Positions 1 through 34,614 of a stretch of 64,000 bases of DNA are shown here, in pieces. Below the pieces are notes generated by a model, which searched no databases, was not told where the DNA came from, and was given only the letters and a program-made list of their open reading frames with translations. The stretch's first letter is position 1. Each line of letters begins with the position of its first letter. Position numbers and translations under genes: made by a program. This stretch comes from a virus (taxonomy: Duplodnaviria > Caudoviricetes), in IMG/VR virus record IMGVR_UViG_3300026187_000011, positions 14,344 to 78,343 of that record; one strand, written 5' to 3'.

Positions 1-39
1 TATTTTCATTCTAAGTCCTTAAAAACCAATAGTCAATGA

Positions 40-63
40 TGTTACTACCTATATCTTGTAACA
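40..63. promoter_or_regulatory. Palindromic operator-like site, TGTTACTA-N8-TAGTAACA family
   Basis: TGTTACTA cctatatc TTGTAACA (1 arm mismatch), non-coding, downstream of the tRNA. Confidence 0.55.
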
Positions 64-100
64 TACCCTGCAAATCTAAAGTACAACTTTAGTTTTTCAA

Positions 101-176
101 TGGAGCCATCGACCGGAATCGAACCGGTGACCTTTCCATTACGAGTGGAATGCTCTACCAACTGAGCTACGATGGC
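101..176 (-). tRNA. tRNA-Thr (anticodon CGT) with encoded CCA
   Basis: Reverse complement GCCATCGTAGCTCAGTTGGTAGAGCATTCCACTCGTAATGGAAAGGTCACCGGTTCGATTCCGGTCGATGGCTCCA: acceptor stem, D loop, anticodon stem TTCCA/TGGAA with loop CTCGTAA, GGTTCGA T loop, CCA end. Confidence 0.96.
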
Positions 177-281
177 GTAGTACCAAAGCCCAAAATCCCA
201 ATTTTTTTATTTTTGGCAATTTCCAAATCCATGGAAACCCGAGAAAGAGGGTATATATCAACGCACAGCCAAATTTGCCGT

Positions 282-298
282 CCCCCCCAAGGGGGGGG
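282..298. other. C7-AA-G8 inverted repeat in the divergent intergenic region
   Basis: CCCCCCC AA GGGGGGGG seen directly; lies between the - strand tRNA and the + strand early block. Confidence 0.6.
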
Positions 299-300
299 TG

Positions 301-326
301 TGTTACTAACTGCACAGGTAGTAACA
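301..326. promoter_or_regulatory. Palindromic site with perfect arms and a 10-bp spacer
   Basis: TGTTACTA actgcacagg TAGTAACA. Confidence 0.55.
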
Positions 327-399
327 GAAATCCCCTAAACCCCTGATTTCGTGGGGTTTATATGGGTACAATGCTTAACATTCATACATATTACACATT

Positions 400-1034
400 G
401 TCCGTACGGGGTACGGATTGGGGATTGACTACCCCAAGGGTGAAACTCGCTCACCAAGCGAGGGAAACCTTACCCGCCATGAGTCACTATTCGAGACGTG
501 CATTCGATTGCAAGCTAAGGAGTGAAACTGCCAAGCCGCCTGAAAAGTCATGGGTCTATAATCTAACTTATCCGCTCTGCCTGCGACAGGTAACGGTATC
601 TCGCTCGGAGGCGAACACCCTTGGTTGGGTCAGTAGTCAGAGGAGGGCGAGTGCTCGGGTATGGTAGGCTATCCAATGGTTAACATTGGTAAAAATAGTC
701 TTTAAAGGGTCAGCGTGCGAGGGATTGTCTTAACGGGGCAATCATGCTAAGACGGGGTCAATCTAACCTAGGGGCAGTAATCCCTAAGATTGAGTCAAGA
801 GCAACCTAAAAGGTCGAGGATAAAACAAGTTCACTTTTACCTAGTACGGAAAGCAACTTGCCAAGGCAAAGCACAAAACCTCCTTCGGGAGTGGTCAGTG
901 TAGGGTGGAGCCAAGTCGTGTATAACTTCCACTGACAATCCGATAATATCGCATAAACACAGGGAGCGTAAAAGATTCAGGGAGCGAGGCAACTCATGCC
1001 ACATTCTAAGCCACTGATGAGAAGGGATTTGGTC
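400..1034 (+). ncRNA. Candidate large structured non-coding RNA
   Basis: No credible ORF. At least 12 helices, including long-range 434-442/616-624 (9 bp perfect), 426-432/633-639, 758-764/787-793 and 894-900/930-936, and a C(UUCG)G tetraloop at 883-888. Confidence 0.6.
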
Positions 1035-1080
1035 TACTACAAAGTGTAGTATTAACAATCAACTAACCAAAGGATACAAA

Positions 1081-1656
1081 GTGAATAATACAACATTAAC
1101 ACACTTCGATGCATTACTAGAATCTGACCGTGCTGAGGCTGAGAGAATACTTAGACTGAGTGAACAGGCTATAGATGGTGCCAATGCTAAAGCCATACTC
1201 GACGAGGAGACCACTGAGGTAATGACTACTAAAATGATTCTCGACAAGCTCAATGCTATTCGTGAAGACAAGTCATACAGCGTACCAAGTGGCTATCGTT
1301 TGCCTGACAATGAATATGTTCTAAGTCAGATTTCCCATGATGAGACAGGATTTCATGGTACAACTGATTTCCTAGGCATAAATGCAATGTCTTACGGCGA
1401 GGCTAAGAAGTTAGCCAAGCAGGATTATCTCGACAACTTCTGCAACGATGAGGCAATCGATGCAACATTCGATTTGATTCGTGAGCATCGTGAGTCAAAC
1501 ACAGCGACATTCTCTAAGAATACGCTGAAGCACAACAAGAATGGTACAACATCATTCAGGTTGTCCGGCACACTTGGTCGCAAGATGAAGAAAGCATCGG
1601 CAGCAACACCGGGTGAAATAGTTGCACACATGAAGAGTAAACTCTCTTCAAAGTAG
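1081..1656 (+). CDS. Hypothetical early protein (191 aa)
   Basis: GTG start after AACCAAAGGA leader, long clean ORF. Confidence 0.8.
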   Translation: MNNTTLTHFDALLESDRAEAERILRLSEQAIDGANAKAILDEETTEVMTTKMILDKLNAIREDKSYSVPSGYRLPDNEYVLSQISHDETGFHGTTDFLGINAMSYGEAKKLAKQDYLDNFCNDEAIDATFDLIREHRESNTATFSKNTLKHNKNGTTSFRLSGTLGRKMKKASAATPGEIVAHMKSKLSSK

Positions 1657-1734
1657 TACTGATGAGGCTTTAATAGCCGAAACCTATGCGCACCCTGTCA
1701 ATACGGGCAGGGTGCATCAGTATTTGTCTACTAC
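1653..1734 (+). ncRNA. Hammerhead ribozyme (type I topology)
   Basis: Stem I GTAGTA(1653-1658)/TACTAC(1729-1734); CTGATGA 1659-1665; stem II GGCT-TTAAT-AGCC; GAAAC 1679-1683; GTC cleavage triplet 1726-1728. Stem III has only 2 bp before a 2x2 internal loop. Confidence 0.65.
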
Positions 1735-1764
1735 ATAACTTCAACCCTTAACCAAGGATTTATC

Positions 1765-2076
1765 ATGAGAAATGGCAAAGTATATGCCAAGCCAATGGGT
1801 GGTCGCATTGCGATGACTACCAAGGGTAGCCGTGCGTACAGGAGTAACACTCGTCGTCGGTTTCCTAAAAAACCAAAAGGATTAGAGCTTGCACCATTTG
1901 ACATACCATTGGTGTTCGACCTGACCATTGCCGAGGATGCGCTTGCCATCCAGGACTTCAACTTATTCGACCTGCTCGAGGCTGACTCATCGAATGATAA
2001 TATTTACATACTAACATCAGACAAAATCGAATGGCGTGCCGACTTGTGGCTAGCCATCAACAACGCAATATCATGA
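1765..2076 (+). CDS. Hypothetical protein
   Basis: ORF with AACCAAGGA leader, overlapping the next start. Confidence 0.7.
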   Translation: MRNGKVYAKPMGGRIAMTTKGSRAYRSNTRRRFPKKPKGLELAPFDIPLVFDLTIAEDALAIQDFNLFDLLEADSSNDNIYILTSDKIEWRADLWLAINNAIS

Positions 2077-18283: not shown

Positions 18284-19345
18284 ATGAGATACGAAAAGAA
18301 TAAGAAAACCGGCATTTATTCTGCCGTGATTAAGACAGCAAATGGTAAAATCATTAAGCGTTCACTTGGAACAAGGAACAAAGATGAAGCCAAGATGTTA
18401 GCTAAGGAGGCTAAGTTGGCAGAGATAGAAGCTGCTGCCAGGATAAAAGCACTTACCCGTGACACAATTACTGCCATTGTTGCAGGGAAGAATATAAAGA
18501 TTCAGGAGGTGGTTGGTGAATATGAGGAGTTTAGGAAGATGAAGTCCCACTCGAAGCATACAATCTATACTGAAGGGACTGTTATTAATTCATTCCTTAA
18601 ATTCTCAAAGCTACAAAATTCAAAGATATCCAGCATTACAACCAAGCATATCTATGAGTTTGTAAATGTAAGTGATAAGACTTCGTATAATCATAAGTGC
18701 AAAAAACTAACAGCAGTCAAAGGTTTACTGACCTATGCAATTGCCAATGCTTACATCCTCAAGGACCCTTCCTATGGGGTGTCTGTGGATAAATCATTGT
18801 TGTCCCACAAGCAGAAGGAGAAAAAGAAATCCATAGCTTTCACTAAGTCAGACTACGAAAGAATCCGTAAGCACTGCTCATACTTCTGGAGCATTGCCGC
18901 TGACTTTGCCTGGTGGACAGGGTTACGCATAGGTGATATCGCAAGCTTAGAATGGGATATGTTTAATGATAAGTATCTGACTGTGCATACACAGAAAACA
19001 GATGCTAGAGTATCACTTCCAATAGATGACGAGCTAATAGGCGGAGGGATTCTTCATGATACTATCGCTAGGATTGAGCCGGAGGATAAGAAGTATTGCT
19101 TTCCTATATGGAAAAAAATCTATGACAATGTATCCTCGCGAGCCACGCTTGCTGTATACTTCGGTAGAGAATTAGAACGAAAGCATCCGAAAGCATATGA
19201 AGAAGGTAAGCGCTTCCATTCTTTCAGGCGTTCATTTGTTACTAGATGCGCACGCGAAGGTAAGGAGCTTAGCGATATTGCAGTAATGGTGGGGCACGCC
19301 AATGAAAGCACCACACAACTATATGATACGGGCTCCAGGCTTTGA
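18284..19345 (+). CDS. int: Tyrosine recombinase/integrase
   Basis: TGLRIGD (Arg), KTD (Lys), FHSFRR (HxxR), VGH and TTQLY (Tyr) catalytic motifs; N-terminal SLGT arm. Confidence 0.95.
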   Translation: MRYEKNKKTGIYSAVIKTANGKIIKRSLGTRNKDEAKMLAKEAKLAEIEAAARIKALTRDTITAIVAGKNIKIQEVVGEYEEFRKMKSHSKHTIYTEGTVINSFLKFSKLQNSKISSITTKHIYEFVNVSDKTSYNHKCKKLTAVKGLLTYAIANAYILKDPSYGVSVDKSLLSHKQKEKKKSIAFTKSDYERIRKHCSYFWSIAADFAWWTGLRIGDIASLEWDMFNDKYLTVHTQKTDARVSLPIDDELIGGGILHDTIARIEPEDKKYCFPIWKKIYDNVSSRATLAVYFGRELERKHPKAYEEGKRFHSFRRSFVTRCAREGKELSDIAVMVGHANESTTQLYDTGSRL

Positions 19346-21784: not shown

Positions 21785-22198
21785 CTAGCAAATTAATAAA
21801 TCCCACCCGTGCCTATATTTCTCAAACTTGGCTTGACTACTAGGGTTTGGGAATAGTTTTATTGTAAGATTTCTTCCGATTGCCTGCTTCGGAATAATGT
21901 ACCAATACTTGTCCATGTCCCCAATTACTAGGGCAGCAAGTATATCATAGGCGTCTTCTTTGTAGTGATTCTTTCGAGATGTTTTTGCACCCATCGCTGT
22001 GGTGATATTGTATCCCTTTGGTGAGTTTTTGCGGGCAGTGCCTTTTACCTGGATTCTCCATAGTTTATTTCCGTTATCCACTATGCAGTCGTAAGGAAGG
22101 TAATCTCCTTCTGTTTGGCAGACATCCAGGCCTCTTGATAACGCCTCCTGCGTAAACATAACCTCGTAAAGTGTCCCTGCTCTTTTGTTGTGGCTCAT
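21785..22198 (-). CDS. PD-(D/E)XK endonuclease (group I intron-associated-like family)
   Basis: YE..F...GLDV...GDYLPYDCIVD...LWRIQVK. Confidence 0.8.
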   Translation of the reverse strand: MSHNKRAGTLYEVMFTQEALSRGLDVCQTEGDYLPYDCIVDNGNKLWRIQVKGTARKNSPKGYNITTAMGAKTSRKNHYKEDAYDILAALVIGDMDKYWYIIPKQAIGRNLTIKLFPNPSSQAKFEKYRHGWDLLIC

Positions 22199-25100
22199 TA
22201 GAAACCTAGCAAAGCCTTCCTTCTTAACTCATCCATACTGGTAGGACCTGCCTCAGGCTCCTTCAACCCCATCTCCTGTATGAAGTATTGATGATTTCCT
22301 TCATACCTTTTTACTTTTGCGCGCTGGTCTGAAGGCATTAATTCTAGCAAGGCCTCCCATTCGGCATCCGGGATTTTATGACGGGTTATACCTGAGCGTA
22401 GTCCTCTATCTTTAAATCTTTTTAAAACTATGTTTTCAGGAGTCCCTCGCATCTGCGGATTATCCTCAAGGTACTCACGGGCGGCTTCTAGTGCCTCCTC
22501 ATACTGCTTGTTAAAGTCTTCCTCATCTCCTGCATAAGCTGCCCTTTCCATTTGCTTCACATTTACTGACAACTTACTAGGTCTACCAAACCCTTGACTT
22601 GGTCCTCTAAGATTCATCCCCATCAGAAATGCAGTCTTCTTTACGCTCGCCCTAACTCCTATGTAATCAGCAACCCGTGACTCAAAGTTATCTAAATCAA
22701 ACAAGTTATTAGTTGCGTCAAATGCCTGCAGAGCAGAGTTACCGCCAAACGCATAAGTTAAAGGTCGCCCTACATTGCCCCAATCGAACTCTCCTTGGTG
22801 CATCCAGTTTCCCATAGAGTCGTATATGTTTTTTATAATAGAAAACGCGAAAATCCTACTGTCCAAACTAAACTCCTGCACGCCTCCATAAGTGTCACCC
22901 TTTGCCATCATGGAGTTCATTAAATCAAAACCCATGCCGTAAGGAGTGCCCGCTTTTGCCATGCGTGAGGTTAGTCCAAAGAATGATGACTGCTCATCTG
23001 ACATCGCAATTCCAGGACCAACAACAGGAAGCATAGCCCATGGTGTAAGTGGTGGTAAAGAGTTTGGCTTACCTAGCACCTCTTCGTCATACCAATCAAT
23101 CAAGAATGCGAAAGATAGTCCGACAGGTAAATAAATCGCTGACATTAATCCAAGGTACTTTAGGAAAGCTGCATAGCTATTTACTGAGTCAGTATCTCCA
23201 CGGAAGATAAACTTATTATCCCGTGCCATCTTACCAAGGGGCCACCCTAGGAAGAATGCAAAATACTTCATCATCGGATTAGTGTATAACCATGCCGGCT
23301 TAGAATTAAATCCTTCCCCTGACATATTATTCATAGCAACTTGATTGACCATGAGTATCTGCTCGTGAGACATCACAGGTGCATTAGGGTCGCTACGCAA
23401 TCTGTCTAGGTAATCAAATGCCATTCGGGATACTGTAGGTGCGCCTGCGTCAACTAACATGTTGTTAGCATTTACATACCCGTCTTTCTCCCCAACTATC
23501 CACTCAAAACTACTTTGCCCCATACCCAAGTCATCAGCACTAATTTCTTGAAAGTCACGCAGACCATTGTTCTTTATGTGCCTAGCTACTTTTAACACCA
23601 AATCCTGATATGCATATGCAGCACCCACGCCCACGGAGTGGTTGACCACATTATTTACATATGGGAAAATTCCAGTAACGGCAGTCATTAAGTCCACGGG
23701 AGCACGAGTACCACGCTTCTTGTGGTGAGTGGAGATACCTTTGATGATTCTTAGGTAACGCTTCATGTTTGATGGGTCCATCAAGTCGCCACCCCTGCCT
23801 ACCTGAGTAAGGTAATCTCTCAACGAAAGCTCCATCTCTTCCATCCTGAAGTGCGTGTTATTCAGGCTTGATGCATATCTGCCAACTCTATCCAACTGCA
23901 TACCTAATGCTTCCGCAACTCCGCCAAATGTTTGATTTGCAAAGTTTGCGAGTGCTTTTGCAGTTCCTTTGGCTGCCATCTTATTAGCACCCCTGAACGC
24001 TAAAGGAAACTCAAACAAGGACATGCCCTGCCAAAAGGATGACTTCGGGTTATTAAGTACAGTTAAGGATTGCGTCCCTAGCAATTCGAGCAGGAACCTG
24101 GCATCCTTAAATGGACCGGCATCATTATTTGCACCATAGTATGCTTTTAAATGCCTAAAGGTTGTGAGCATCTCTCCATAAGCAACAGAGTCATTGTAAA
24201 TCTTATCGAACTTTTCTCTTGGTTTATCATATCCCATATCCTTCAGGACTCGATGTGCTTCTTTTCTAACTGCTTTTGAGTAGCGAGCGTTTGGCTTATC
24301 GGGTGCTTCTCCGGTAGCTTCTGCGATTACAGTTCTAAATAAATCATATGACTTCTTGAGCTCTCCACGACCACCACTAAATGCTTCTGTAGCTTTACTG
24401 CCATCTCTCCCAAACACCGAGGCTGCCGAGAACATTGCCATACGGATTGGCGTGCTCACCTCATCATACATATCGTATAGAAAAAACTCCTTTGGTAGTC
24501 TGCTTTCTACCTGCCTTGCATCAAGTGAGCGTGGCACATGTTTGAGTGCTTCTGTCTCTCTCGTTTCTGTCTCTGCCCTACTTTTGATATCATTAGACAC
24601 ATTAGCAAGTTCTCGATATCTTTTATGCAGTTGCTTAAACATACTTAGATACCAATCAGCTCTTGCTTGTGGGTTATTTAAATCAGATGACATGGATGCA
24701 TAGTCGGCATAGATGGCATCCATAAACTTAATCACATTGCCGTCCGAACTTCTCCACTTCTCGCCCACATATGTATTCGATAGCTCTTGTCCCCATCCGT
24801 CTTTGTCTTGAGGACCGAAGAATAGACTCTTTCTATTCATTGAGTCCATGTGTGGATTGACAAAGCGTTGAACAACCTGTTCGTCAAAGTAGTCTTCTAT
24901 CTCTCCGACCATCTCATCAATCTCTCCGTTTCTGTGGAGCATGGTAATCATTTCAAACCCTGCCATGTTATTGATGTTTTCTGCCCAGCCTTTACCTTCC
25001 ATGTACTCAACCAAAGAGTTTACCTTGGAGTCATTGATTGCTCTAGGCAGGGTCGCATAACCCATGTCTAGTGGCATACGATAAAAGTCCACGCTTTTCT

Positions 25101-28100
25101 CTCCGTCTAAATATGACTGCACCTTTACCTTGTCATCACGGATACGATTGCCAAGGTCACGATTTACCTTAGCCTCCCAATCTCTTGATTGTATTGTTTT
25201 CTCAACAAGAGTTTTGACAGCCCTGCGTGACTCATCATTAAGCTTTGTCTTATCTTTAACCCTTCCACTCTTGCGCATATCTTTCCACATTGCAGTAAAC
25301 GCTTCGGTCTCGTTTTCTGCATACTCAGGATGATTATCAAACCACCAAAAAATATCTTGATATAGTCCCGTGTAGAACGATGTTCCTGTTTCACCAACTG
25401 CCTTTGTTGCGTTTTGGTAGGCACGATTAAATTCTTTAGAGTATCTCATGGACTTAGAAATCAGGTCTCTGTAAAGAGCAACTGTTCTACTTGTCATCTG
25501 AGCCAATCTTTTTCCTTCGTAACCCAAGCGAGAGAATCTTTGATTCAAACTTTCCAAGCCTGCCATCCATGCACTTCTACGAGCAGCAGTCCATTGTTGC
25601 GTTACTGGAAGGGTGAGAGCAATCTCTGCTTGCTCGCGCATAATGTCGAACCATGGTTCATTCCTATAATCTGAGCCATGATTCCTGACCCACTCAAGGG
25701 TCTCTCTGTTTGCCTTAATGAACTCTTTTCTGTTCACGAGGTCGCCGTTTTGAAACTTCACTTCGAACACTTGGAATGATTTCCTATCGTACTCTCCCTT
25801 AGCATTCTTTCTCATGACGCGAATCTTACTTCCGTCACGAATATCAAAATCTTCAAGTTCCCCTAATGTGAACCTATACTTATCTGACCGAGCCTTAAGT
25901 GTTTCGTCTATAATTTTATTTATATTTACCTCGTTCTCGATACCCTTGACTGACTCCTCTAGCTCAATCACGCGCATCTTGGCATGCTTGATATGCTTAA
26001 TCTTTGTTTTAAGTCTGTCCTGAAATTTATTAGCTACCGCCTCTACTTCCTTTTTGGATTTGGCTTTCAGTATACTGTATCCTGCTTCAAGAAATTCTTT
26101 TTGCTCAACGCCCAATTTGTTTCTAGCAAGACGAAGCAATGACATAATGTCACCGCTATTCTTAATCGCATAAACAAGAGCAGTCCTGCGAAGTGCTGTC
26201 TGCTTGTCGTTGCCTTGGAACCCAGCAAGACCGGGCACAATTGCTGTCTCCACAAACCCATTTATTTCATCTAGTGATGACTCCTCCAAAACGCCAGGCT
26301 GATTAATTATCGCTACCATAGCATCACCAATCTCTTTATTTGTGACGCCCTGCATTTCCTTGAGGTCTGCCTGTGTTAATTCTGAGTTAGGCAGGTACTG
26401 TAAGTACTTTTCTAAACGCTCAAATGCCTTGGATGATTGGCTAGAAGCTGAGTCCGCTTGCCCTACAATCTTATCGCGTATCGCACTAGACAGACCCTCA
26501 ATGGATTCTAGTTGTCTTGTTTCTAGTGCCTTAAGTAGTTTCTTGTGACTAGCTACCTCTATTTGGTTTGCCTCGAGACTTGTTACTAGGTCGGCTATAG
26601 TATTTCTTGCATGCTCCCTTGTTCTCTCAATGTATGCAATTGCGTTACGAATACCATAAAGCTTTGCCACTCGGTTACGACCGGCATCTGTAATCTTTAC
26701 CGTTTTTACATCTATTTCAAAAGGCTGAAGGTTTTTACCAACTGCCTTCATTGCTGAGCTTACACTATGAGTACCGAACCCAAGTGCCATTTTGCCATAC
26801 TTATCTATAAAGCTATTAATATCTGCGCCAGGTAGTTTATCTACGCTTGCCTTGAATGCTTGAGTGAGTGCTGTTACTAATTCATTTATGCCTCCTGCGG
26901 TGGCCTCATGGTATACTCTAGCACTATCGTCAGGGCGAGGAATAGATTCCTTGTTTGCTGGGGACGGGTTTGATGAGGCTGAGAACGCACCTGTATAGGT
27001 ATCCGAAGCTTGCTTGATTGCAGTTAGCACATCAAAGACTTCGTCTTGCTTATTGACTAAATTAGGCATCTCCCGTGAGAGCCACCATCCTGGAGGCATT
27101 GACCATGCCGCACCGGGCTTAAATTTGTCATCCATTTGGTCCTGCAGCTTGCTCAACTTGGCATCATCTAGCTTAGCATCATCCTTTGCACCAAGCACAA
27201 CCTCTCCAAATTGGTCGCCTGTTGCCTCGATGTCATCTTGCAACAACCTCTCTTGAGTCCTCGAAGTGATTTCTCCAAAGTTCCAAAAATATAAAATATC
27301 TTTTAACCAATAAGTGTGGTCCGACTCAGTGGTTATACTTGCTTCCGCAAGGAACTCTTGAGGCGTGAGACTATCCATCGAGATTGGGTCAAGGTCGATA
27401 CTAGATAAGGCATCATGCAATGTGCTTAAAACACTATGTAGATAGAAGTACTGATGCTTGTCGTATGTATCACGCAGTTCATCGCTATACTGTCTCGCAA
27501 GGACTATATCTCTTGTCTTTGCGACTGCAGGAATAATCTTGTCTGTTAAATCACTAATCGTAAATGTTTCACCACCACCTGTAAATATAAACAGGGCCAT
27601 CATGATTCCTTCAGCAATTTCACTGTTTGAACCGCGAGGAAATCCTTCAATCTCATCTACCGCATGCTGTATCTCATGTATTAAAGTCCCGCGTACATTT
27701 GAGGCATTTTCTGCCAACTCTATCGTCGGCTCACTCCTCCAACCAGGAATACTTGGGTCCCAGGTTCCATTCCATGCTCCTACATAAGGACTACTACCAG
27801 GAGACTTTCTTATCCTAACTCTTTTAAGCTGTGGGTAAGCCTTGAATAATTCGGGATGCTCAAGGATGTCGCCTAAATATGCGTCTTCGGGAACTACAAA
27901 CCCATTAATAGAATCCTTCATTGGCAACTTCACCTCGTCGCCCTCTTTTATTAACCCTCTATCAAAAGCTTCTTTTACAAGTGGATTCGAGTTAATAATC
28001 CGAGCGGTGGCTTTGGTTACTAGCTTGGCATCCCTGTCGTAAATATGCTTACGTCTAGTGCCATCTAGCCATTTAAACTCTAATAAGTTCTCTCGTACTT

Positions 28101-31100
28101 TTTGCCCAGGCTCAATCTGCCTGTTAGGTCCTGCAAATATATCCAATGTAGATATGCCACGCACATTTACTGCATTAATGGCATTACCCATAGCGCCTAA
28201 TCTGTCAGCCCTAGAGATAACTTGGTTGAGCGTCTTCTCTGCATAAGCAAGCATCTCAGGTTCTTGGCTTGCACGCTCACTCACCCCTAGGAGTTTTGCC
28301 AATAAATTAACAACCCAATCCCATGCTGTACGAATCTTGGACTTTGGTCGTATGCCAAGTGCTTTTCTTTCTTCGTTTGTCAGTTTATACTCACGAAGAA
28401 ATGAGCGTAATCGGTAGTCACTACCTACCTCGGAAAGAAATTCATCAGGTGATGATAATCCATATATCATGTCCGCCCCACCACTCTTGCGGAGCATAGG
28501 AAGCAATACATCCTGAATATGACTATACATCTTGCCATACTCTTCGCCGAAAGATTTATCTTTCAGTTCGGAAATCGCCTGCGTGTTGTTCGTACTAAAG
28601 GCATAACCAACATCAAGGAATATCTTGGTTGGCACATGGATTGCCTCATGAACAATAGAGGTCACAAGGTTCTCCATTGATGTTCCGGAACCATCCCCGA
28701 ATACATCAGACACCCATATCTCATCACGACCAAACATATACTGAGCAGCTGAGTAGCCATACTCATTGGTGGATGCCACACGACTATACTTCTCCCATGG
28801 CACAAATCGTATCTTTGTATTCTTTAGTGCCTTGTTTGCTTTGAGTTTTCGAACTATGTATCCAATCGCTTTCTCCTCACGGAAGCTTGTTCCTGACTCA
28901 ATAATTTCCAGTATTCTTTCAAATCCTACAATAGCTGAGAATGGTACATCTATCTGTCCACCATCAAGAAAGTTACTAATTGCCAACTGATTGTCAGCAA
29001 GTTGTTCATCCATCCCCATTTCAGTGAGAGGATTTCCTGACTTTCTAACAGCAATACTTCTTCGCTCTCTTGCTATTCGGTCGGCATCCTGTGCTGATTT
29101 TTCATCAAATACTAATGGTGCAGATTCCTCAACCTGTCCTGTGGCAGGACTCATCATGCCAACATGTCGAATCCTTTGGTCTAGTGTGGTTACGCTCTCC
29201 TGCGTTCTGACTGCAATAGATACCTGGTCAGCAAGTGCATTATAGTATGGGTCGTCTAGGAAACTCATACCATCATGAAACCCTACGAACTCAGATAATG
29301 TCTGAGCAAATTCAGATAGTAACATCCCGTCCTCTACCACGGTGTCCTGCATCTTTACTTCAGGCTTTGCCTTGACTGACTTAATACTATTTAGCCTGTC
29401 AGCAAGTTTCTCTATCTTTGTTTGAAGCTCTTGTATTTTCTTTTGGTCAATCTCTATCTCAGTAGCACGTTTTGACGGGCGGGTATCTCCTGTCTCTTCT
29501 CTTCTGCTTCCTTTCGCTAGATACACCTTCCGTGGAGTGTCTGAGAAAGATTCTTTTTGGTACTTACTTCTTTTGCCAGTTTTTCTGAGATTTTCCACAC
29601 CCGTGCGGAGCCTCTTTATAATCTTCGTCTCCCTGTTTATCTCATCAATAAGCTTCTGCCTTTGTGTCTCCTTCGTGGTTTCATCAAACTCTACCTCTTT
29701 TTCAATTACATTAGTGTCCTCAAGCTCGACCACATAAGACTCAGGTATCCATGCTTCTTTTAAGAAATTGCTAGCAATATCCCACTTAGCTAAATCGTCC
29801 TCCGATATTACTTTCTCACCAATCTCTCGGAGTGTATCATCTATAAATCCGACTAACGCCTTTGCGTCTGATGTCGCCATGAACCCACCCTCAAATGGAG
29901 TGCCGTCATTCTTAACCCTCGCTCCATTAGATTTATCTTTTAAAACCTCTTCATTTACAGGGTACTTCCTGCCCTTATTGAGTGGCTCCTGTAGTATCTC
30001 GGAGTACTCTATCTTCTCAATGATGCTATCTACATCTTCCTCTGTAAAGTCTGCAGAATACAATGCGTCACGAAGGTCTAACCCAAATTCCCTGTGTAAA
30101 TAATTAACTGCACCTAAGTCACTATCTCTAGACCGGTTAACATTATCTACTTCTAGTCTGTTTCTAATCTTCTTGCGAACCTCAGGCACAGGGTTCTTTT
30201 TTATTGGCCGAGTTTTTGCAGTAAGTGTATCACGAATCTTTTCTAAATTATTAAGAAAGTTATCCCTGATGTTGTAGTTTTTGTTATTTAATCGAGGAGT
30301 AAGTAGGGTGTCTTCGAATATTGCTTTTGTTTTAGCCTTAGGCTTTTCGCCCGCCAGTTCTGATTCGGTCTCCTCGGCTTTATCAGCAATTGTTGTTTGA
30401 GGTCTTGTGTAGTATCGAGATATCAACTCTTGGCTAGCTAGCTCTCGATATAAATCCTTCAGTATTGTCGTAAGCTGATTCTCGTATGCCGTCTTTACTG
30501 CATTAGGAGTATCCTGACTTATGAATAGTCGCTGTGCTGCGTCTTCAATATTATTTAAATCTATCTCAGCAAACGAACGAATATCATCTCTTAGATAGTC
30601 AGGAATCTGTGCTAAAGTAAGAGTTAAGTCTCTCGGGTTTGCGAACAACTTGTGGAACTGAACTGTGCCTCCAGTTAATTCCTGTTCTGATGAAGAGCTG
30701 AGGTAGTCTTTTGCTGAACCCACATCTCTCTCAGTTTCCTGCAGTCCCATGGATTCAGTTGTGTCCTCGTCTGCTTGCTTCTCAAGTTCACCCTGTGCAT
30801 CTTGTCTGCCTAAATCTACAAATTCTCCTCCCGATTGAAATGTGGGAACCTCAATACTTTGAGCTGCTTTTAATGCAGCCTTTACAATTGGTAAATCAAA
30901 CGGAGTGGTGTGTGGTGTTCCGGGTCCCCACTCAAGTGGTTCGTATCCTTGGGCACCTGCCGCACGTTGCAGAATATCATATATGCTGTGCTTTTTGTCA
31001 TCAAAGGTGAACTCCTTGTCATAAACTTTTTCTTTTGTTTCAAACGAGCGAACAACATCCTCCATATCATTATTCGCAAACGCAATAAATGCTTGGGTAT

Positions 31101-34100
31101 ATGCATCTATGGCATCCGTGTTACCCCCTGCCTGTGAAACTAAATAGTCCAGCCTTTCCTTGTTGGAAACAAACATAGGGGCGTTTTGTAAAGATGGGTC
31201 TATTGCTCTACCATCTTCAGTTAAATAATCAGACCCAAGGAGTGGCTCAACCTCCTTAAGGTATTTGTCTAATTTTTCTTTACCCTCTCCTTCAAGATAC
31301 GCTTGTGCCTTTTCTGAGTCCTTGAAGAGCCCGTACCATTTCTTACTAGATGATAACTGCATGCTAGTCTGAAAGGCAGGATGGCTCTCCAGTTCTTTTA
31401 TATCATCAAATAAAGCATCGAGCTTGCTAGCTTCGTAATCCACCGCATCTCGCTGAGTAGTTATTTTTCCAAGTAATCGGTAACCCTCTAGCGGGGTGGC
31501 GTCAATCTTGCCTGATTTCCCCTTACCATAAAGTGGTCTCCACCCAGGACTTTTGCCTTTCGCTCCGACTCGCAAGCTATCGTAAACCTTCAGGACATCC
31601 CTTCCATCCATCTTGGCTTTTTTTGCCGTCAGTACTCGGACTTGACCTGACTGCACGTCGTCGTGGTCATTGTTGACTTTCTCAACAACGACAAGGACAC
31701 GATTCCCAGGTGTTTTTACTTCCGCCTTTTTCTTTCCTTTGCCCGTTGTTTTTGTTGAGCTCTTCTCTCTGTCAGACAAACCTTCCCAGTTTCCCCCGAC
31801 TAATGAACCATCATTTTCTAGGGCATCTTGCATGCCTTCAGTAATATCAAACTCTCCAACAAATCGGGGAGGCATTTCTCCCTTTGGTAAGTTTATTTTT
31901 TTAGGAGCTTCCTCTGTGTTACTTATTTCATCTAGTAACTCTTCATTCGACTTTTCTTCGTCTAGCTTTTCTTGCTGTTGTAATTGTTGCTCCTTTGCTC
32001 TGTCATTTGCGATTTTGGACGCACGCTCCTGAATAAGTCTTTCAGTCTCTGCTTCAAAATCTGCAGCAGCGCCCATGCTTTCATTAATATCATCTAATGA
32101 TGGTTGAAGTTTTTCTGCCCAACTAAGTGCTTTTATTAACTTCTCTGCACGTGGCGGAGTCACAGGGTTAATTACTGGCGTATTATCAGATTTGTTTCTG
32201 TTGACCCTTAGTTCACCATTTTCTTCTATGACATCAAATCCTAGACCCTCCAAGAATGGTGCCAATTCAGTGTCAATCCCCTGGTGAAGATTACTAATTG
32301 CCACATTTCTTAAGACTTCTAGCTCTTTCTCGATATTTAGTTTTTCAAGCTTTTCTGCATCGATAAAATCAAAACCTAATTCAGGAGCATCTGCAGTTTC
32401 ATTAACCGATTGAATCTTTCTGTATAAATTAGCACCAGCTTTCTGAGATTCATTTAAATTTAATTCTTCTCTCTCCGGCTCTTCATACTTTCTTTCTGTG
32501 ATTACTTCGTCCCTTGCTTGTCGAAGGTCTTCTTCTGTCGGTGCTTTCGGGGTGTTATTTTTTGGTACAGTTTGAACTTTCTTTTTTGCTCTTGGTACCC
32601 TGAGTTTCTTTGGCTCAACGCCAACCCCATTCTCCTCAAACAGAACTTTATTATCAGCTGTAAATCCGTAGATTATCGCCTCATCATCCCCTATGGCAAC
32701 CGTGTCACCAATGGTGGCTCCCTTCAATCTGTTCTTTATAATGTCCGCGCGGTCATCAAGTATCTTCTGTCTGCGAGAATCTTCGATTTCTATATCCTGC
32801 TTTGTCTCACCCTGCCAAACACCATTCTCATTAGTAACACCTGCTTGATATAGGTATTGTCTAATCTTCTTGTTCTTAAATTTTTTATAGGTGGCACCTG
32901 ACATACCTCCTGCTTTGAGAATAACCTCATGGTTGGAGTTGGATTTACGGAAACTGCCCGCCTCGGCTTGCTTTTTAAGCTCCTTGTAGACCTCCTCTAT
33001 ATCAGCTTTTTCTTTCTGCGTAATACCACCAACCTCATATCCATCTTCTGCAAATGTAAATGTGGCAGGTTTGTTATTTTGTTCTTCGGGCGGTTGTTCT
33101 ACTTCTGTTTGCTTATCTATTTCCTCAAGTGCTTTCTGCTCCTCCATCTGTGCAGACTTATCGCCTTGGTCAGCCCTTTCTTTTACTTCATCCAGTCGAC
33201 GATTTAAATCTTCGATTGGGCGAAGCACAGGGGATAGTGTATCTTGGCTAATAGTTATTGGCTCATCCGAGCCTTCCGGTAATATCTCGACCTGTCCGTC
33301 CCCACGAATAGCACTAATCTTGCCCTTTACGCCCAAGAACTGCTCCACCTCATCTCCAACTGCGAAGTCAGATGTTTCCACCGCAAGTCTGTCCTTAAGT
33401 GTGGAGAGTCGCTCATCTATGTCTTGTGTGGTTTCTTCAGGTCCTCCTGAAATTTCATCACCTGTGTCAAGGTCTGCACCTTCAGTCTTTTTACCCCTCT
33501 GTATTGAACCCAAGGCACTGAATTGCGCGCCACCCAAAGCTCCCAATACACCTGCATCAATAAGTCTATTTATCTCATCAGCAGTTAGCTCTTCTCCCAT
33601 TTCTCCTCGAGCATACTTCTCTGCCGCCATGGAGATAAACTCTTGTGCCGCCTCGGTAGCACCCTCAAGAAAAACACCAGAGGGAAGGTTTAGTATAAGT
33701 CTCTTAAGATATGTTTCTGCAGGTTTTGCTCCTATTCCTAAAGTCTTATTAAGCAATGCTCCTGCAGATACAAAGTCCAGTCCGCCCGCCATTGCACCAA
33801 AGCTAACTGATAATGATTTCGCCTGGTCTTCGGGTATATAGTTCGGGTCCCTTGGGTCTAGCTTGGTATAGTCGTGTAACTCGGAGTATATCTCTCCGAC
33901 ATTCATGCCGAATGAACTACCTCCTAATGCTATGTTACTACCTACCTGCTGACCCCTTCTGCCTGCCTCCTCAAATTTAATTGCACCCTTAAATACTTCT
34001 TCTAGCTTATTGGGGTTAGTCTTTCTTACTACCTCTTTGAGTCTTTTCTTGGCGGCTTGCTTTGCTATTAAGTATCCACCACCTCCACCAAGGGCATATG

Positions 34101-34614
34101 AACCAGCTGCTTCTAGTACTGATGGCGTGGCTTCACCTAGTCCGCCCGCTAAAAACCTTGCTACTTCCGATGGATTGTCCCACCTGACATCTGTTGCACG
34201 CTCAATGGATGGCCCACCTCTTGCTGCTTCTGCCCTAAACTTAGCAGACTGCTCCATAAGGTAGTCTTCAGCAAAATCTAATCCCGCAACACCTGCTGCC
34301 ATTCCTCCGATTGCAGATGCACTTCCGAGTAGGCTTTGCCCTGACTTCTTGAACCCTGCGCCAAACTCTTTTACACCACCAAGTACACCTTCTCTCCCTC
34401 TCTCAGGAGCATTAATTACATCTAAGTATCTACTGGAGAAATCCGTACCATATGTATTAGCAATCTCCTCTGATGTACGACCTTGGTTCCTAAGGTCATC
34501 ACCCAAGAATCTTAGAATTTCTTCGTCGGTATATCCATCAACATTATATCCAGCATTTTGCGCCTGCTGTCTATAGTTGCGGATTACATGTCCCGCGGTA
34601 GTGTATTTTTCCAT
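22198..34614 (-). CDS. Giant polyvalent / internal virion protein (4138 aa) with zincin-like metallopeptidase motifs
   Basis: HEAIH (28636-28650) and HEIQH (27664-27678); WLDG..RK.IYD..AKL and LGDILEHPELFKAYPQL..GEITSR, typical of LPD23-linked peptidase modules; located at the end of the ejection gene block. Confidence 0.8.
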   Translation of the reverse strand: MEKYTTAGHVIRNYRQQAQNAGYNVDGYTDEEILRFLGDDLRNQGRTSEEIANTYGTDFSSRYLDVINAPERGREGVLGGVKEFGAGFKKSGQSLLGSASAIGGMAAGVAGLDFAEDYLMEQSAKFRAEAARGGPSIERATDVRWDNPSEVARFLAGGLGEATPSVLEAAGSYALGGGGGYLIAKQAAKKRLKEVVRKTNPNKLEEVFKGAIKFEEAGRRGQQVGSNIALGGSSFGMNVGEIYSELHDYTKLDPRDPNYIPEDQAKSLSVSFGAMAGGLDFVSAGALLNKTLGIGAKPAETYLKRLILNLPSGVFLEGATEAAQEFISMAAEKYARGEMGEELTADEINRLIDAGVLGALGGAQFSALGSIQRGKKTEGADLDTGDEISGGPEETTQDIDERLSTLKDRLAVETSDFAVGDEVEQFLGVKGKISAIRGDGQVEILPEGSDEPITISQDTLSPVLRPIEDLNRRLDEVKERADQGDKSAQMEEQKALEEIDKQTEVEQPPEEQNNKPATFTFAEDGYEVGGITQKEKADIEEVYKELKKQAEAGSFRKSNSNHEVILKAGGMSGATYKKFKNKKIRQYLYQAGVTNENGVWQGETKQDIEIEDSRRQKILDDRADIIKNRLKGATIGDTVAIGDDEAIIYGFTADNKVLFEENGVGVEPKKLRVPRAKKKVQTVPKNNTPKAPTEEDLRQARDEVITERKYEEPEREELNLNESQKAGANLYRKIQSVNETADAPELGFDFIDAEKLEKLNIEKELEVLRNVAISNLHQGIDTELAPFLEGLGFDVIEENGELRVNRNKSDNTPVINPVTPPRAEKLIKALSWAEKLQPSLDDINESMGAAADFEAETERLIQERASKIANDRAKEQQLQQQEKLDEEKSNEELLDEISNTEEAPKKINLPKGEMPPRFVGEFDITEGMQDALENDGSLVGGNWEGLSDREKSSTKTTGKGKKKAEVKTPGNRVLVVVEKVNNDHDDVQSGQVRVLTAKKAKMDGRDVLKVYDSLRVGAKGKSPGWRPLYGKGKSGKIDATPLEGYRLLGKITTQRDAVDYEASKLDALFDDIKELESHPAFQTSMQLSSSKKWYGLFKDSEKAQAYLEGEGKEKLDKYLKEVEPLLGSDYLTEDGRAIDPSLQNAPMFVSNKERLDYLVSQAGGNTDAIDAYTQAFIAFANNDMEDVVRSFETKEKVYDKEFTFDDKKHSIYDILQRAAGAQGYEPLEWGPGTPHTTPFDLPIVKAALKAAQSIEVPTFQSGGEFVDLGRQDAQGELEKQADEDTTESMGLQETERDVGSAKDYLSSSSEQELTGGTVQFHKLFANPRDLTLTLAQIPDYLRDDIRSFAEIDLNNIEDAAQRLFISQDTPNAVKTAYENQLTTILKDLYRELASQELISRYYTRPQTTIADKAEETESELAGEKPKAKTKAIFEDTLLTPRLNNKNYNIRDNFLNNLEKIRDTLTAKTRPIKKNPVPEVRKKIRNRLEVDNVNRSRDSDLGAVNYLHREFGLDLRDALYSADFTEEDVDSIIEKIEYSEILQEPLNKGRKYPVNEEVLKDKSNGARVKNDGTPFEGGFMATSDAKALVGFIDDTLREIGEKVISEDDLAKWDIASNFLKEAWIPESYVVELEDTNVIEKEVEFDETTKETQRQKLIDEINRETKIIKRLRTGVENLRKTGKRSKYQKESFSDTPRKVYLAKGSRREETGDTRPSKRATEIEIDQKKIQELQTKIEKLADRLNSIKSVKAKPEVKMQDTVVEDGMLLSEFAQTLSEFVGFHDGMSFLDDPYYNALADQVSIAVRTQESVTTLDQRIRHVGMMSPATGQVEESAPLVFDEKSAQDADRIARERRSIAVRKSGNPLTEMGMDEQLADNQLAISNFLDGGQIDVPFSAIVGFERILEIIESGTSFREEKAIGYIVRKLKANKALKNTKIRFVPWEKYSRVASTNEYGYSAAQYMFGRDEIWVSDVFGDGSGTSMENLVTSIVHEAIHVPTKIFLDVGYAFSTNNTQAISELKDKSFGEEYGKMYSHIQDVLLPMLRKSGGADMIYGLSSPDEFLSEVGSDYRLRSFLREYKLTNEERKALGIRPKSKIRTAWDWVVNLLAKLLGVSERASQEPEMLAYAEKTLNQVISRADRLGAMGNAINAVNVRGISTLDIFAGPNRQIEPGQKVRENLLEFKWLDGTRRKHIYDRDAKLVTKATARIINSNPLVKEAFDRGLIKEGDEVKLPMKDSINGFVVPEDAYLGDILEHPELFKAYPQLKRVRIRKSPGSSPYVGAWNGTWDPSIPGWRSEPTIELAENASNVRGTLIHEIQHAVDEIEGFPRGSNSEIAEGIMMALFIFTGGGETFTISDLTDKIIPAVAKTRDIVLARQYSDELRDTYDKHQYFYLHSVLSTLHDALSSIDLDPISMDSLTPQEFLAEASITTESDHTYWLKDILYFWNFGEITSRTQERLLQDDIEATGDQFGEVVLGAKDDAKLDDAKLSKLQDQMDDKFKPGAAWSMPPGWWLSREMPNLVNKQDEVFDVLTAIKQASDTYTGAFSASSNPSPANKESIPRPDDSARVYHEATAGGINELVTALTQAFKASVDKLPGADINSFIDKYGKMALGFGTHSVSSAMKAVGKNLQPFEIDVKTVKITDAGRNRVAKLYGIRNAIAYIERTREHARNTIADLVTSLEANQIEVASHKKLLKALETRQLESIEGLSSAIRDKIVGQADSASSQSSKAFERLEKYLQYLPNSELTQADLKEMQGVTNKEIGDAMVAIINQPGVLEESSLDEINGFVETAIVPGLAGFQGNDKQTALRRTALVYAIKNSGDIMSLLRLARNKLGVEQKEFLEAGYSILKAKSKKEVEAVANKFQDRLKTKIKHIKHAKMRVIELEESVKGIENEVNINKIIDETLKARSDKYRFTLGELEDFDIRDGSKIRVMRKNAKGEYDRKSFQVFEVKFQNGDLVNRKEFIKANRETLEWVRNHGSDYRNEPWFDIMREQAEIALTLPVTQQWTAARRSAWMAGLESLNQRFSRLGYEGKRLAQMTSRTVALYRDLISKSMRYSKEFNRAYQNATKAVGETGTSFYTGLYQDIFWWFDNHPEYAENETEAFTAMWKDMRKSGRVKDKTKLNDESRRAVKTLVEKTIQSRDWEAKVNRDLGNRIRDDKVKVQSYLDGEKSVDFYRMPLDMGYATLPRAINDSKVNSLVEYMEGKGWAENINNMAGFEMITMLHRNGEIDEMVGEIEDYFDEQVVQRFVNPHMDSMNRKSLFFGPQDKDGWGQELSNTYVGEKWRSSDGNVIKFMDAIYADYASMSSDLNNPQARADWYLSMFKQLHKRYRELANVSNDIKSRAETETRETEALKHVPRSLDARQVESRLPKEFFLYDMYDEVSTPIRMAMFSAASVFGRDGSKATEAFSGGRGELKKSYDLFRTVIAEATGEAPDKPNARYSKAVRKEAHRVLKDMGYDKPREKFDKIYNDSVAYGEMLTTFRHLKAYYGANNDAGPFKDARFLLELLGTQSLTVLNNPKSSFWQGMSLFEFPLAFRGANKMAAKGTAKALANFANQTFGGVAEALGMQLDRVGRYASSLNNTHFRMEEMELSLRDYLTQVGRGGDLMDPSNMKRYLRIIKGISTHHKKRGTRAPVDLMTAVTGIFPYVNNVVNHSVGVGAAYAYQDLVLKVARHIKNNGLRDFQEISADDLGMGQSSFEWIVGEKDGYVNANNMLVDAGAPTVSRMAFDYLDRLRSDPNAPVMSHEQILMVNQVAMNNMSGEGFNSKPAWLYTNPMMKYFAFFLGWPLGKMARDNKFIFRGDTDSVNSYAAFLKYLGLMSAIYLPVGLSFAFLIDWYDEEVLGKPNSLPPLTPWAMLPVVGPGIAMSDEQSSFFGLTSRMAKAGTPYGMGFDLMNSMMAKGDTYGGVQEFSLDSRIFAFSIIKNIYDSMGNWMHQGEFDWGNVGRPLTYAFGGNSALQAFDATNNLFDLDNFESRVADYIGVRASVKKTAFLMGMNLRGPSQGFGRPSKLSVNVKQMERAAYAGDEEDFNKQYEEALEAAREYLEDNPQMRGTPENIVLKRFKDRGLRSGITRHKIPDAEWEALLELMPSDQRAKVKRYEGNHQYFIQEMGLKEPEAGPTSMDELRRKALLGF

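Follow-up and report, generated by a model that had tools for sequence, protein, structure and literature searches.

A candidate large structured RNA family linked with an orphan gene and a hammerhead ribozyme in marine phages

In this work, a gap of ~900 nt was analysed in a phage (Duplodnaviria; Caudoviricetes) represented by the IMG/VR record IMGVR_UViG_3300026187_000011. The analysed stretch of 64,000 nt, which comprises bases 14344–78343 of this 78,343-bp viral contig, is referred to as the window. The gap is bordered on the left by a minus-strand tail-fibre-adhesin-like gene together with a tRNA gene, and on the right by the first plus-strand gene, open reading frame 1 (ORF1, 1081–1656). 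No credible gene is present at window positions 177–1080. A first-pass annotation of the letters had proposed that the gap holds a new or divergent large non-coding RNA (400–1034) beside a tRNA, and the tRNA is indeed there as tRNA-Thr(CGU) at 101–176 on the minus strand. Sequence comparison indicates that the gap encodes an RNA of ~640 nt which, with an architecture revised from that first proposed, is a genuine new structured RNA family. We consider it rather probable that positions ~395–1052 of the plus strand specify an uncatalogued structured RNA forming, with ORF1, a linked unit closed by a hammerhead ribozyme.

The homologue set comprises eleven sequences from ~six lineages, namely the window and ten marine phage contigs (L003, L024, L037, and L040; L019, L025, L036, L038, and L039; L021). 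In the compared region, the window shares 46–52% nucleotide identity with the others, which share 56–83% among themselves, and all homologous contigs come from marine samples, TARA included. They were obtained through the left-hand gene, by a hidden Markov model search of representatives with ORF1 and by an ORF1 word search, and pattern scans with the block upstream of the RNA added three; the relatives of ORF1 are few. No match was found with ORF1 as a single query against viral contigs, with the ORF1 alignment against metagenome contigs, or with the promoter-block pattern against prokaryote genomes. The pattern ACACCCTTGGNNGGGTCAG gave four extra loci in viral contigs, which were rejected as chance matches, and the matches of GGTACAATGCTTAACA in viral contigs were mostly chance matches within coding DNA. 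A gap of 0.9–1.2 kb between a 161-amino-acid tail-fibre-like gene (usually with tRNA-Thr) and an ORF1 homologue is present in L003, L019, L021, L036, L037, L038, and L040, and partial copies of it in L024, L025, and L039. Among the relatives of the left-hand gene, L003, L004, and L005 keep a gap of similar size, and L002, L007, and L008 have only positions 1 to ~330 in common with the window, beyond which unrelated genes follow. The identity profile is highest at 201–400 (68–88%), shows conserved islands at 401–720 (36–57%), is near random at 721–920 (26–42%) and is conserved again at 921–960 (~60%) and 1041–1080 (~63%).

The covariation of helices among these homologues carries the structural reading. 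Pairing was compared with slid controls, and the covariation score with 500 shuffles. Across the local helices (H1, H2, P3a/P3b, H4, and H5), 87–97% of the cells are paired against 7–55% in the slid controls, double-sided changes occur in 24 of 41 pairs, and none of the 500 shuffles attains the observed score. The covariation by which the first-pass annotation had proposed to check its RNA is far above controls. The 5′ domain (H1, H2, P3a, and P3b; automatic alignment of 79 columns) has 87.2% of its cells paired against 38–54% when slid, with 10–11 of 22 pairs altered on both sides and 0/500 shuffles reaching its score; the model-fitted alignment gives the same counts. A covariance model of this domain recovers L040, which was outside the training set, with 80.9 bits, and has no further match in the window or in the RNA-less relatives.

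Within the 5′ domain, whose strand, like that of all helices described here, is plus, the H1 hairpin (400–418) has 3 of 6 pairs altered on both sides, and the H2 hairpin (419–436; 419–423/432–436) has 4 of 7, with 95% of its cells paired. The loop of H2 (424–431) is conserved and reads GUGACCA in the relatives and AUUGACUA in the window. P3 (437–471) is a two-tier hairpin built of P3a (437–441/467–471) and P3b (446–451/457–462), with purine-rich internal loops and an xCCA loop. Farther downstream, H4 (514–536) is also two-tiered, in the layout stem, AAG, stem, pentaloop, stem, AA, stem; in alignment A8, 96.7% of its cells are paired against 7–42% slid, 4 of 6 pairs are double-changed, and again 0/500 shuffles reach the score. 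Paired substitutions in H4 separate even close contigs, e.g., GGC/GCC to GAC/GUC. H5 (666–701) consists of an outer stem (666–672/695–701), an inner stem (673–678/684–689) and a GUUAA loop (679–683). It has 93.6% paired cells in alignment A9 against 29–55% slid and 9 of 13 pairs double-changed, and its score is likewise reached by none of 500 shuffles.

The 3′ domain contains a long hairpin (894–947; 894–900/930–936), after which a conserved CAA(G/U)CC.AUAA follows. An exact-complement search locates its partner arm in 8/8 full-length sequences, and the arms are of five kinds (GUCAGU, GCCUAG, GCCAAG, GCCGAG, and GAUUCG), each accompanied by its complement. The last hairpin (1032–1052) is formed by GUC and then 1035–1040/1047–1052, has two compensated pairs relative to the relatives and lies just 5′ of the ORF1 ribosome-binding site. 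In the central junction (570–630), P5 (570–574/594–599) encloses hairpin A (579–583/587–591), and hairpins B (601–604/611–614) and C (617–620/627–630) lie 3′ of P5. As read from the sequences and from single-sequence folds, P5 and the three hairpins hold their place with unrelated stem sequences. RNAalifold gave almost nothing on automatic alignments of 535–641 and 705–950, because MAFFT misplaces helices of completely different sequence, and the helices were therefore read in each sequence. A variable segment with 26–42% identity extends over 715–890, and the word (A/G)GUCA(G/C) is repeated at 482–487, 628–633, 708–713, and 893–898. Together with the null result in Rfam, compensatory changes in at least eight helices across ~400–1052 back the proposal of a new or divergent large structured RNA.

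Every helix of the first-pass annotation that was checked is present at the positions it had assigned, and so is the C(UUCG)G at 883–888; the comparison sorts them by their fate in the relatives. The local stems 446–451/457–462, 578–583/587–592, 601–605/610–614, 667–678/684–700, and 894–900/930–936 are conserved. On the other hand, the stems 712–717/743–748 and 758–773/782–793 and the UUCG loop have no counterpart in the relatives and are specific to the window, and the stem 468–472/516–520, together with the long-range helix treated next, conflicts with the covarying helices H2, P3a, and H4 and is not kept. The long-range helix 434–442/616–624, which had been thought to close a multibranch domain, takes one strand from the 3′ arm of H2 and the 5′ arm of P3a and the other from hairpin C, and it thus conflicts with conserved local helices, of which H2 and P3a covary. 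It is not kept in the relatives, with no equivalent in the L019 group, and is treated here as window-specific or as an alternative state. An alternative pairing of the H2 arms with hairpin C was also considered as a conserved switch and rejected, as group C lacks it, although it is found in the window, L003, and L021.

The second proposed closing helix, 426–432/633–639, finds some comparative support as a loop-to-strand contact, since its 5′ strand is the H2 loop. An exact complement of the central 5-mer of this loop is present in the zone 616–639 (plus strand; the motif-2 zone, a long-range pairing hub) in all lineages but L037. It occurs in three compensated variants, and its position shifts by a few bases between lineages. 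Loop and zone read UGACU/AGUCA in the window, UGACC/GGUCA in L003 and L021, CGACC/GGUCG in L040, and UUACC/GGUAA in the L019 group. In L040 and the L019 group, duplex energies point to the strand after H4 as the preferred partner of the zone (p at most 0.02), and the H2 region stands out as its partner in the window only (p = 0.03). Because the zone carries the complement and its partners differ with lineage, it looks like a docking strand, and 616–639 appears to dock upstream elements in a higher-order fold.

The RNA is preceded by a conserved block (336–394, plus strand) with ~86–88% identity, which is found only in RNA-bearing lineages. The block contains an 8-bp hairpin (336–343/353–360) with a T-rich run, terminator-like, and then TATGGGTACAATG and TACAAT at 367–372; we infer that it is an insulated promoter with the transcript start near 380. 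ORF1 (plus strand) encodes an orphan protein of 191 amino acids and always lies 3′ of the RNA. Pfam, PHROG, NCBIfam, and PADLOC yielded no family for this protein. Its structure model, with a predicted local distance difference test (pLDDT) of 69.5, has no PDB match at E up to 0.001 in Foldseek; the best Z in the wide VIA search was 4.1, and Atlas gave no usable match. A type I hammerhead (1653–1734, plus strand; predicted cleavage after C1728) overlaps the ORF1 stop codon and is located 3′ of ORF1 in 8/8 relatives tested (L003, L019, L020, L021, L037, L038, L039, and L040). Its stem II covaries (GACC/GGUC, GGGU/ACCC, and GUCC/GGAC), and its stem I reads GUAACA/UGUUAC in the relatives and GUAGUA/UACUAC in the window. 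The Rfam score of 17.8 bits is below the threshold, for which a long insert in stem III is the probable cause. The cleavage site of the hammerhead, GUC with the stem I word, recurs at the boundary of RNA and ORF1 and changes there in step with the hammerhead.

The RNA would begin just 3′ of the block at 336–394 and continue into ORF1, no terminator having been found between the two. After the ORF1 stop, the hammerhead would sever the unit from the rest of the early transcript, so that it marks the 3′ boundary of the RNA–ORF1 unit. The resulting molecule would be ~1.35 kb long and contain the structured RNA, ORF1, and the ribozyme. As the RNA is always 5′ of ORF1 and a conserved hammerhead follows ORF1, the simplest reading is that the three form a single cassette. 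Given the fixed coupling to ORF1 and the ribozyme closing the unit, the RNA most likely works for or with ORF1. We hypothesize that it may be a giant cis-acting leader that governs how stable the ORF1 message is or how well it is translated, a serious possibility that stays somewhat below an even chance. It may also bind the ORF1 protein, by analogy with OLE RNA and the product of its neighbouring gene, although we hold this to be rather unlikely. Tentatively, and with clear reservations, a fuller picture can be offered: a new ornate RNA class of ~640 nt with at least 12 helices and a loop-to-strand contact, acting as a machine or as a ribonucleoprotein scaffold with ORF1 in a hammerhead-closed cassette, and confined to one lineage of uncultured marine phages whose hosts are probably Verrucomicrobia.

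A different assignment would be an independent trans-acting RNA, unrelated to ORF1 and released from the early transcript, e.g., at the conserved GUC (1032–1034), which would target the host or host defences or multimerise like GOLLD and ROOL. Such an RNA would suit the size and helix number, which are above those of any known bacterial cis-regulatory leader, the tRNA neighbour, as often with GOLLD and ROOL, the internal repeats (GGUCAG 3–4 times; a 16-nt loop word 1–3 times in two lineages), and the cleavage-site-like word at the boundary with ORF1. However, the stretch between RNA and ORF1 holds neither a terminator nor a ribozyme core, and CUGAUGAG (1012–1019) is present in the window only, the relatives reading CCACUACAUACUAGGG or similar there. 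Moreover, the lineages hardly differ in the spacing between the last hairpin and the start of ORF1, and nothing indicates that the RNA is released; we consider this assignment unlikely. Explanations of the gap by a DNA element, a protein gene or chance are improbable even when taken together. An unconstrained spacer with helices arising by chance would agree with the minimum free energy (MFE), which is −197 kcal/mol for the 635 nt against −188.7 ± 6.7 for shuffles (z = −1.24; −2.69 on the minus strand), so that the proposed energy check was not passed. Most 150-nt segments also have z near 0, the exception being 650–850 (~−2.4 to −2.8), and one inverted repeat of 9 bp is roughly the chance expectation for 635 nt. 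Nevertheless, the covariation counts already contradict such a spacer, as do loops conserved across lineages at ~50% identity, and it is the least probable of the explanations weighed here.

Reading the region as a small fast-evolving protein gene (ORF 362/371–667 and its counterparts in the relatives) would account for a frame that opens at the ATG of the conserved GTACAATG and stays open for 75–115 codons in every lineage, longer than chance often gives. However, the sole ORF of the region (362–667), of 101 amino acids, has no match in Pfam or PHROG and fails the coding tests, in line with the earlier claim that no credible ORF lies here. Conserved nucleotide blocks are read in frames that differ between lineages, and the ends of the ORFs differ as well. 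In the 5′ domain the three codon positions contain 12, 9, and 13 variable columns of 25 each, i.e., there is no codon periodicity, and 326 codon differences are non-synonymous against 76 synonymous. Gene callers leave the gap empty in the relatives, save one odd call in L038, and if TACAAT serves as the −10 element, the ATG would precede the transcript start. A protein gene is thus highly improbable. As a separate observation, the protein sequence of the open frame at 371–667 and its counterparts is not conserved and the frames differ. A DNA-level element, whether an origin of replication, the integrase arm sites of an attP, or a structure for packaging or at a terminus, might be expected at a point of divergent transcription with a local cumulative GC skew minimum (near 300–500), a repeated direct word and an adjacent tRNA that may be an attachment site in a phage with an integrase. 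On the contrary, the loops are constant among lineages and the stems vary with pairing kept, which is the opposite of protein-binding DNA sites, and variable columns of the 5′ domain number 24 of 44 among paired and 10 of 31 among unpaired ones. G–U pairs are tolerated on one strand, as the plus strand has 23 G–U cells against 13 A–C cells, a modest preference that matches the direction of the downstream genes. For GGGTCAG, the enrichment in the window is weak (10 copies, 5.4 expected; 3/100 shuffles reach 10), and the block common to all relatives is at 177–335, not in the RNA region. Furthermore, the locus recurs letter for letter, at another offset, in a second assembly (78,334 bp); since the two 78.3-kb assemblies begin at different places, the assembly behaves as a circle with no physical end here. 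A DNA-level element is accordingly very improbable. Judged by the aligned lineages, the comparison shows that selection acts on the fold, not on the sequence.

Several points weigh against a structured RNA coupled to ORF1. Transcript ends, strand, and processing are all derived from sequence, and folding energy is no better than that of shuffles. The G–U excess is modest, and the helices in 539–640 are based on reading the sequences. The independent lineages number only ~six and are themselves related, so the shuffle controls overstate significance. For the long-range contacts, the duplex energies of the single lineages disagree. Since ORF1 was the route to most homologues, the link with it is partly circular, and no RNA-binding signature was found in ORF1.

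Some further observations concern the RNA in individual lineages. The 16-nt word GUGAAUAAUAGUAGCG occurs 1–3 times per RNA in hairpin loops, is confined to the RNA and to two lineage groups (L003, L019, L024, L025, L037, L038, L039, and L040), and is absent from the window, where the start of ORF1 (AAAGUGAAUAAUA, 1077–1089) resembles it. The contigs L005/L034, L024, and L025/L033 stop 340–440 nt inside the RNA, which suggests strain-level diversity there that breaks assembly. The more distant ORF1 relative L022 (1–727) has at least 727 gene-free nt upstream with a hairpin right before the start codon. This region carries GGUAGC six times, and the 5′ domain model has no match in it; it may belong to this RNA class as a divergent member.

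The conserved intergenic block at 177–335, for which no strand is assigned, lies outside the RNA and is also present in the RNA-less relatives L002, L007, and L008; it is kept even where the early genes of relatives are unrelated. A C7/G8 hairpin (281–298) lies within it, as does the palindrome GTTACTA-N10-TAGTAAC (302–325), which has one copy in the window when ≤2 mismatches are allowed. The tRNA-Thr with its 22-nt 3′ flank (79–100) has 93% identity to tRNA-Thr loci in the marine Verrucomicrobia single-cell genomes AG-891-C06 and AG-919-G08 (L042 and L045). This likeness suggests Verrucomicrobia as the host group, and the locus is perhaps the attachment site for the integrase (18284–19345). 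The 5′ domain model has no match in five genomes with the same tRNA-Thr or in 151 genomes of that order, a result uninformative on absence. The phage proteins also include a helicase, tail-fibre-like proteins, and an orphan of 4138 amino acids (22198–34614, minus strand) that has no sequence match in Pfam, PHROG, or PDB. Among deposited phages, no match was found to the portal protein or in a nucleotide search with 180–1100, and the phage group has no close relative among deposited phage genomes.

To our knowledge, bacterial or phage RNAs above 400 nt that combine a conserved complex fold with no known function are very rare, and every such large RNA studied so far that we are aware of has proved to be a ribozyme, a guide scaffold, or an RNA assembly that had not been expected. 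We also know of almost no studied phages of Verrucomicrobia, the likely host phylum. With a set of homologues, a set of helices, a fixed protein neighbour, and a bounding ribozyme, the RNA is unusually ready for probing, cryo-electron microscopy, and genetics.

No catalogued family was matched, and the RNA appears to represent a new class of large structured RNAs. With Rfam 15, the tRNA was the sole match in the window, both under the curated thresholds and with E relaxed to 10, and also in the relatives. The Rfam search, a check suggested by the first-pass annotation, gave no match to group I or group II introns, RNase P RNA, or transfer-messenger RNA, and none to GOLLD or ROOL. The covariance models of the latter two also have no match in the window (1–1800) at the gathering score or at E up to 10, and none in the relatives. 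The HEARO or omega RNA of IscB–TnpB is not indicated either, as no adjacent RuvC/HNH nuclease (ORF1 has no family) and no Rfam match was found. For a type III toxin–antitoxin system of the ToxIN kind, in which RNA repeats of ~34–45 nt stand in tandem before the gene of an endoribonuclease toxin, no tandem repeats were found among the direct repeats and PADLOC models do not match ORF1. The N4-type hairpin promoters with a giant virion polymerase, whose hairpins have a stem of 5–7 bp and a loop of 3 nt, were rejected, because the H1 loop has 3 nt only in the window and 6–7 nt in the relatives; the 4138-amino-acid protein was likewise rejected as an N4-like virion polymerase for its lack of sequence matches. 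The large RNA was also rejected as a hammerhead, as it has no conserved CUGANGA...GAAA core, and it resembles the type I hammerhead in that the cleavage-site word of the genuine copy 3′ of ORF1 recurs at its 3′ edge.

GOLLD and ROOL are reported to lie often beside a tRNA (Kretsch et al., bioRxiv 10.1101/2024.12.08.627333). The present RNA shares this location, with tRNA-Thr ~220 nt upstream in the window and most relatives (L037 has no tRNA), and like GOLLD and ROOL it is phage-borne, several hundred nt long and rich in helices. It differs from them in running directly into a conserved protein gene and in having no covariance-model similarity. The HK022 put, lambda nut, and P4 CI RNA are leader-encoded elements of 60–100 nt, located right after the early promoter and before the first early gene, and the present RNA, which would have the same location, is about ten times larger. 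In the P4 leader, a loop sequence is complementary to repeated words of the same leader. A comparable complement of the H2 loop recurs here in three compensated variants, but it is only 5 nt long and not kept in every lineage, failing in L037, and the duplex energies are inconsistent across lineages. OLE RNA, of ~600 nt, is co-transcribed with and immediately upstream of oapA, which encodes a small conserved ~20-kDa protein that is its binding partner. The present RNA differs from OLE in having no sequence or model match to it, in its occurrence in a marine phage and not in Bacillota, and in an ORF1 without predicted membrane segments or a known fold, but it resembles OLE/oapA as an RNA of similar length placed immediately upstream of a small conserved protein gene.
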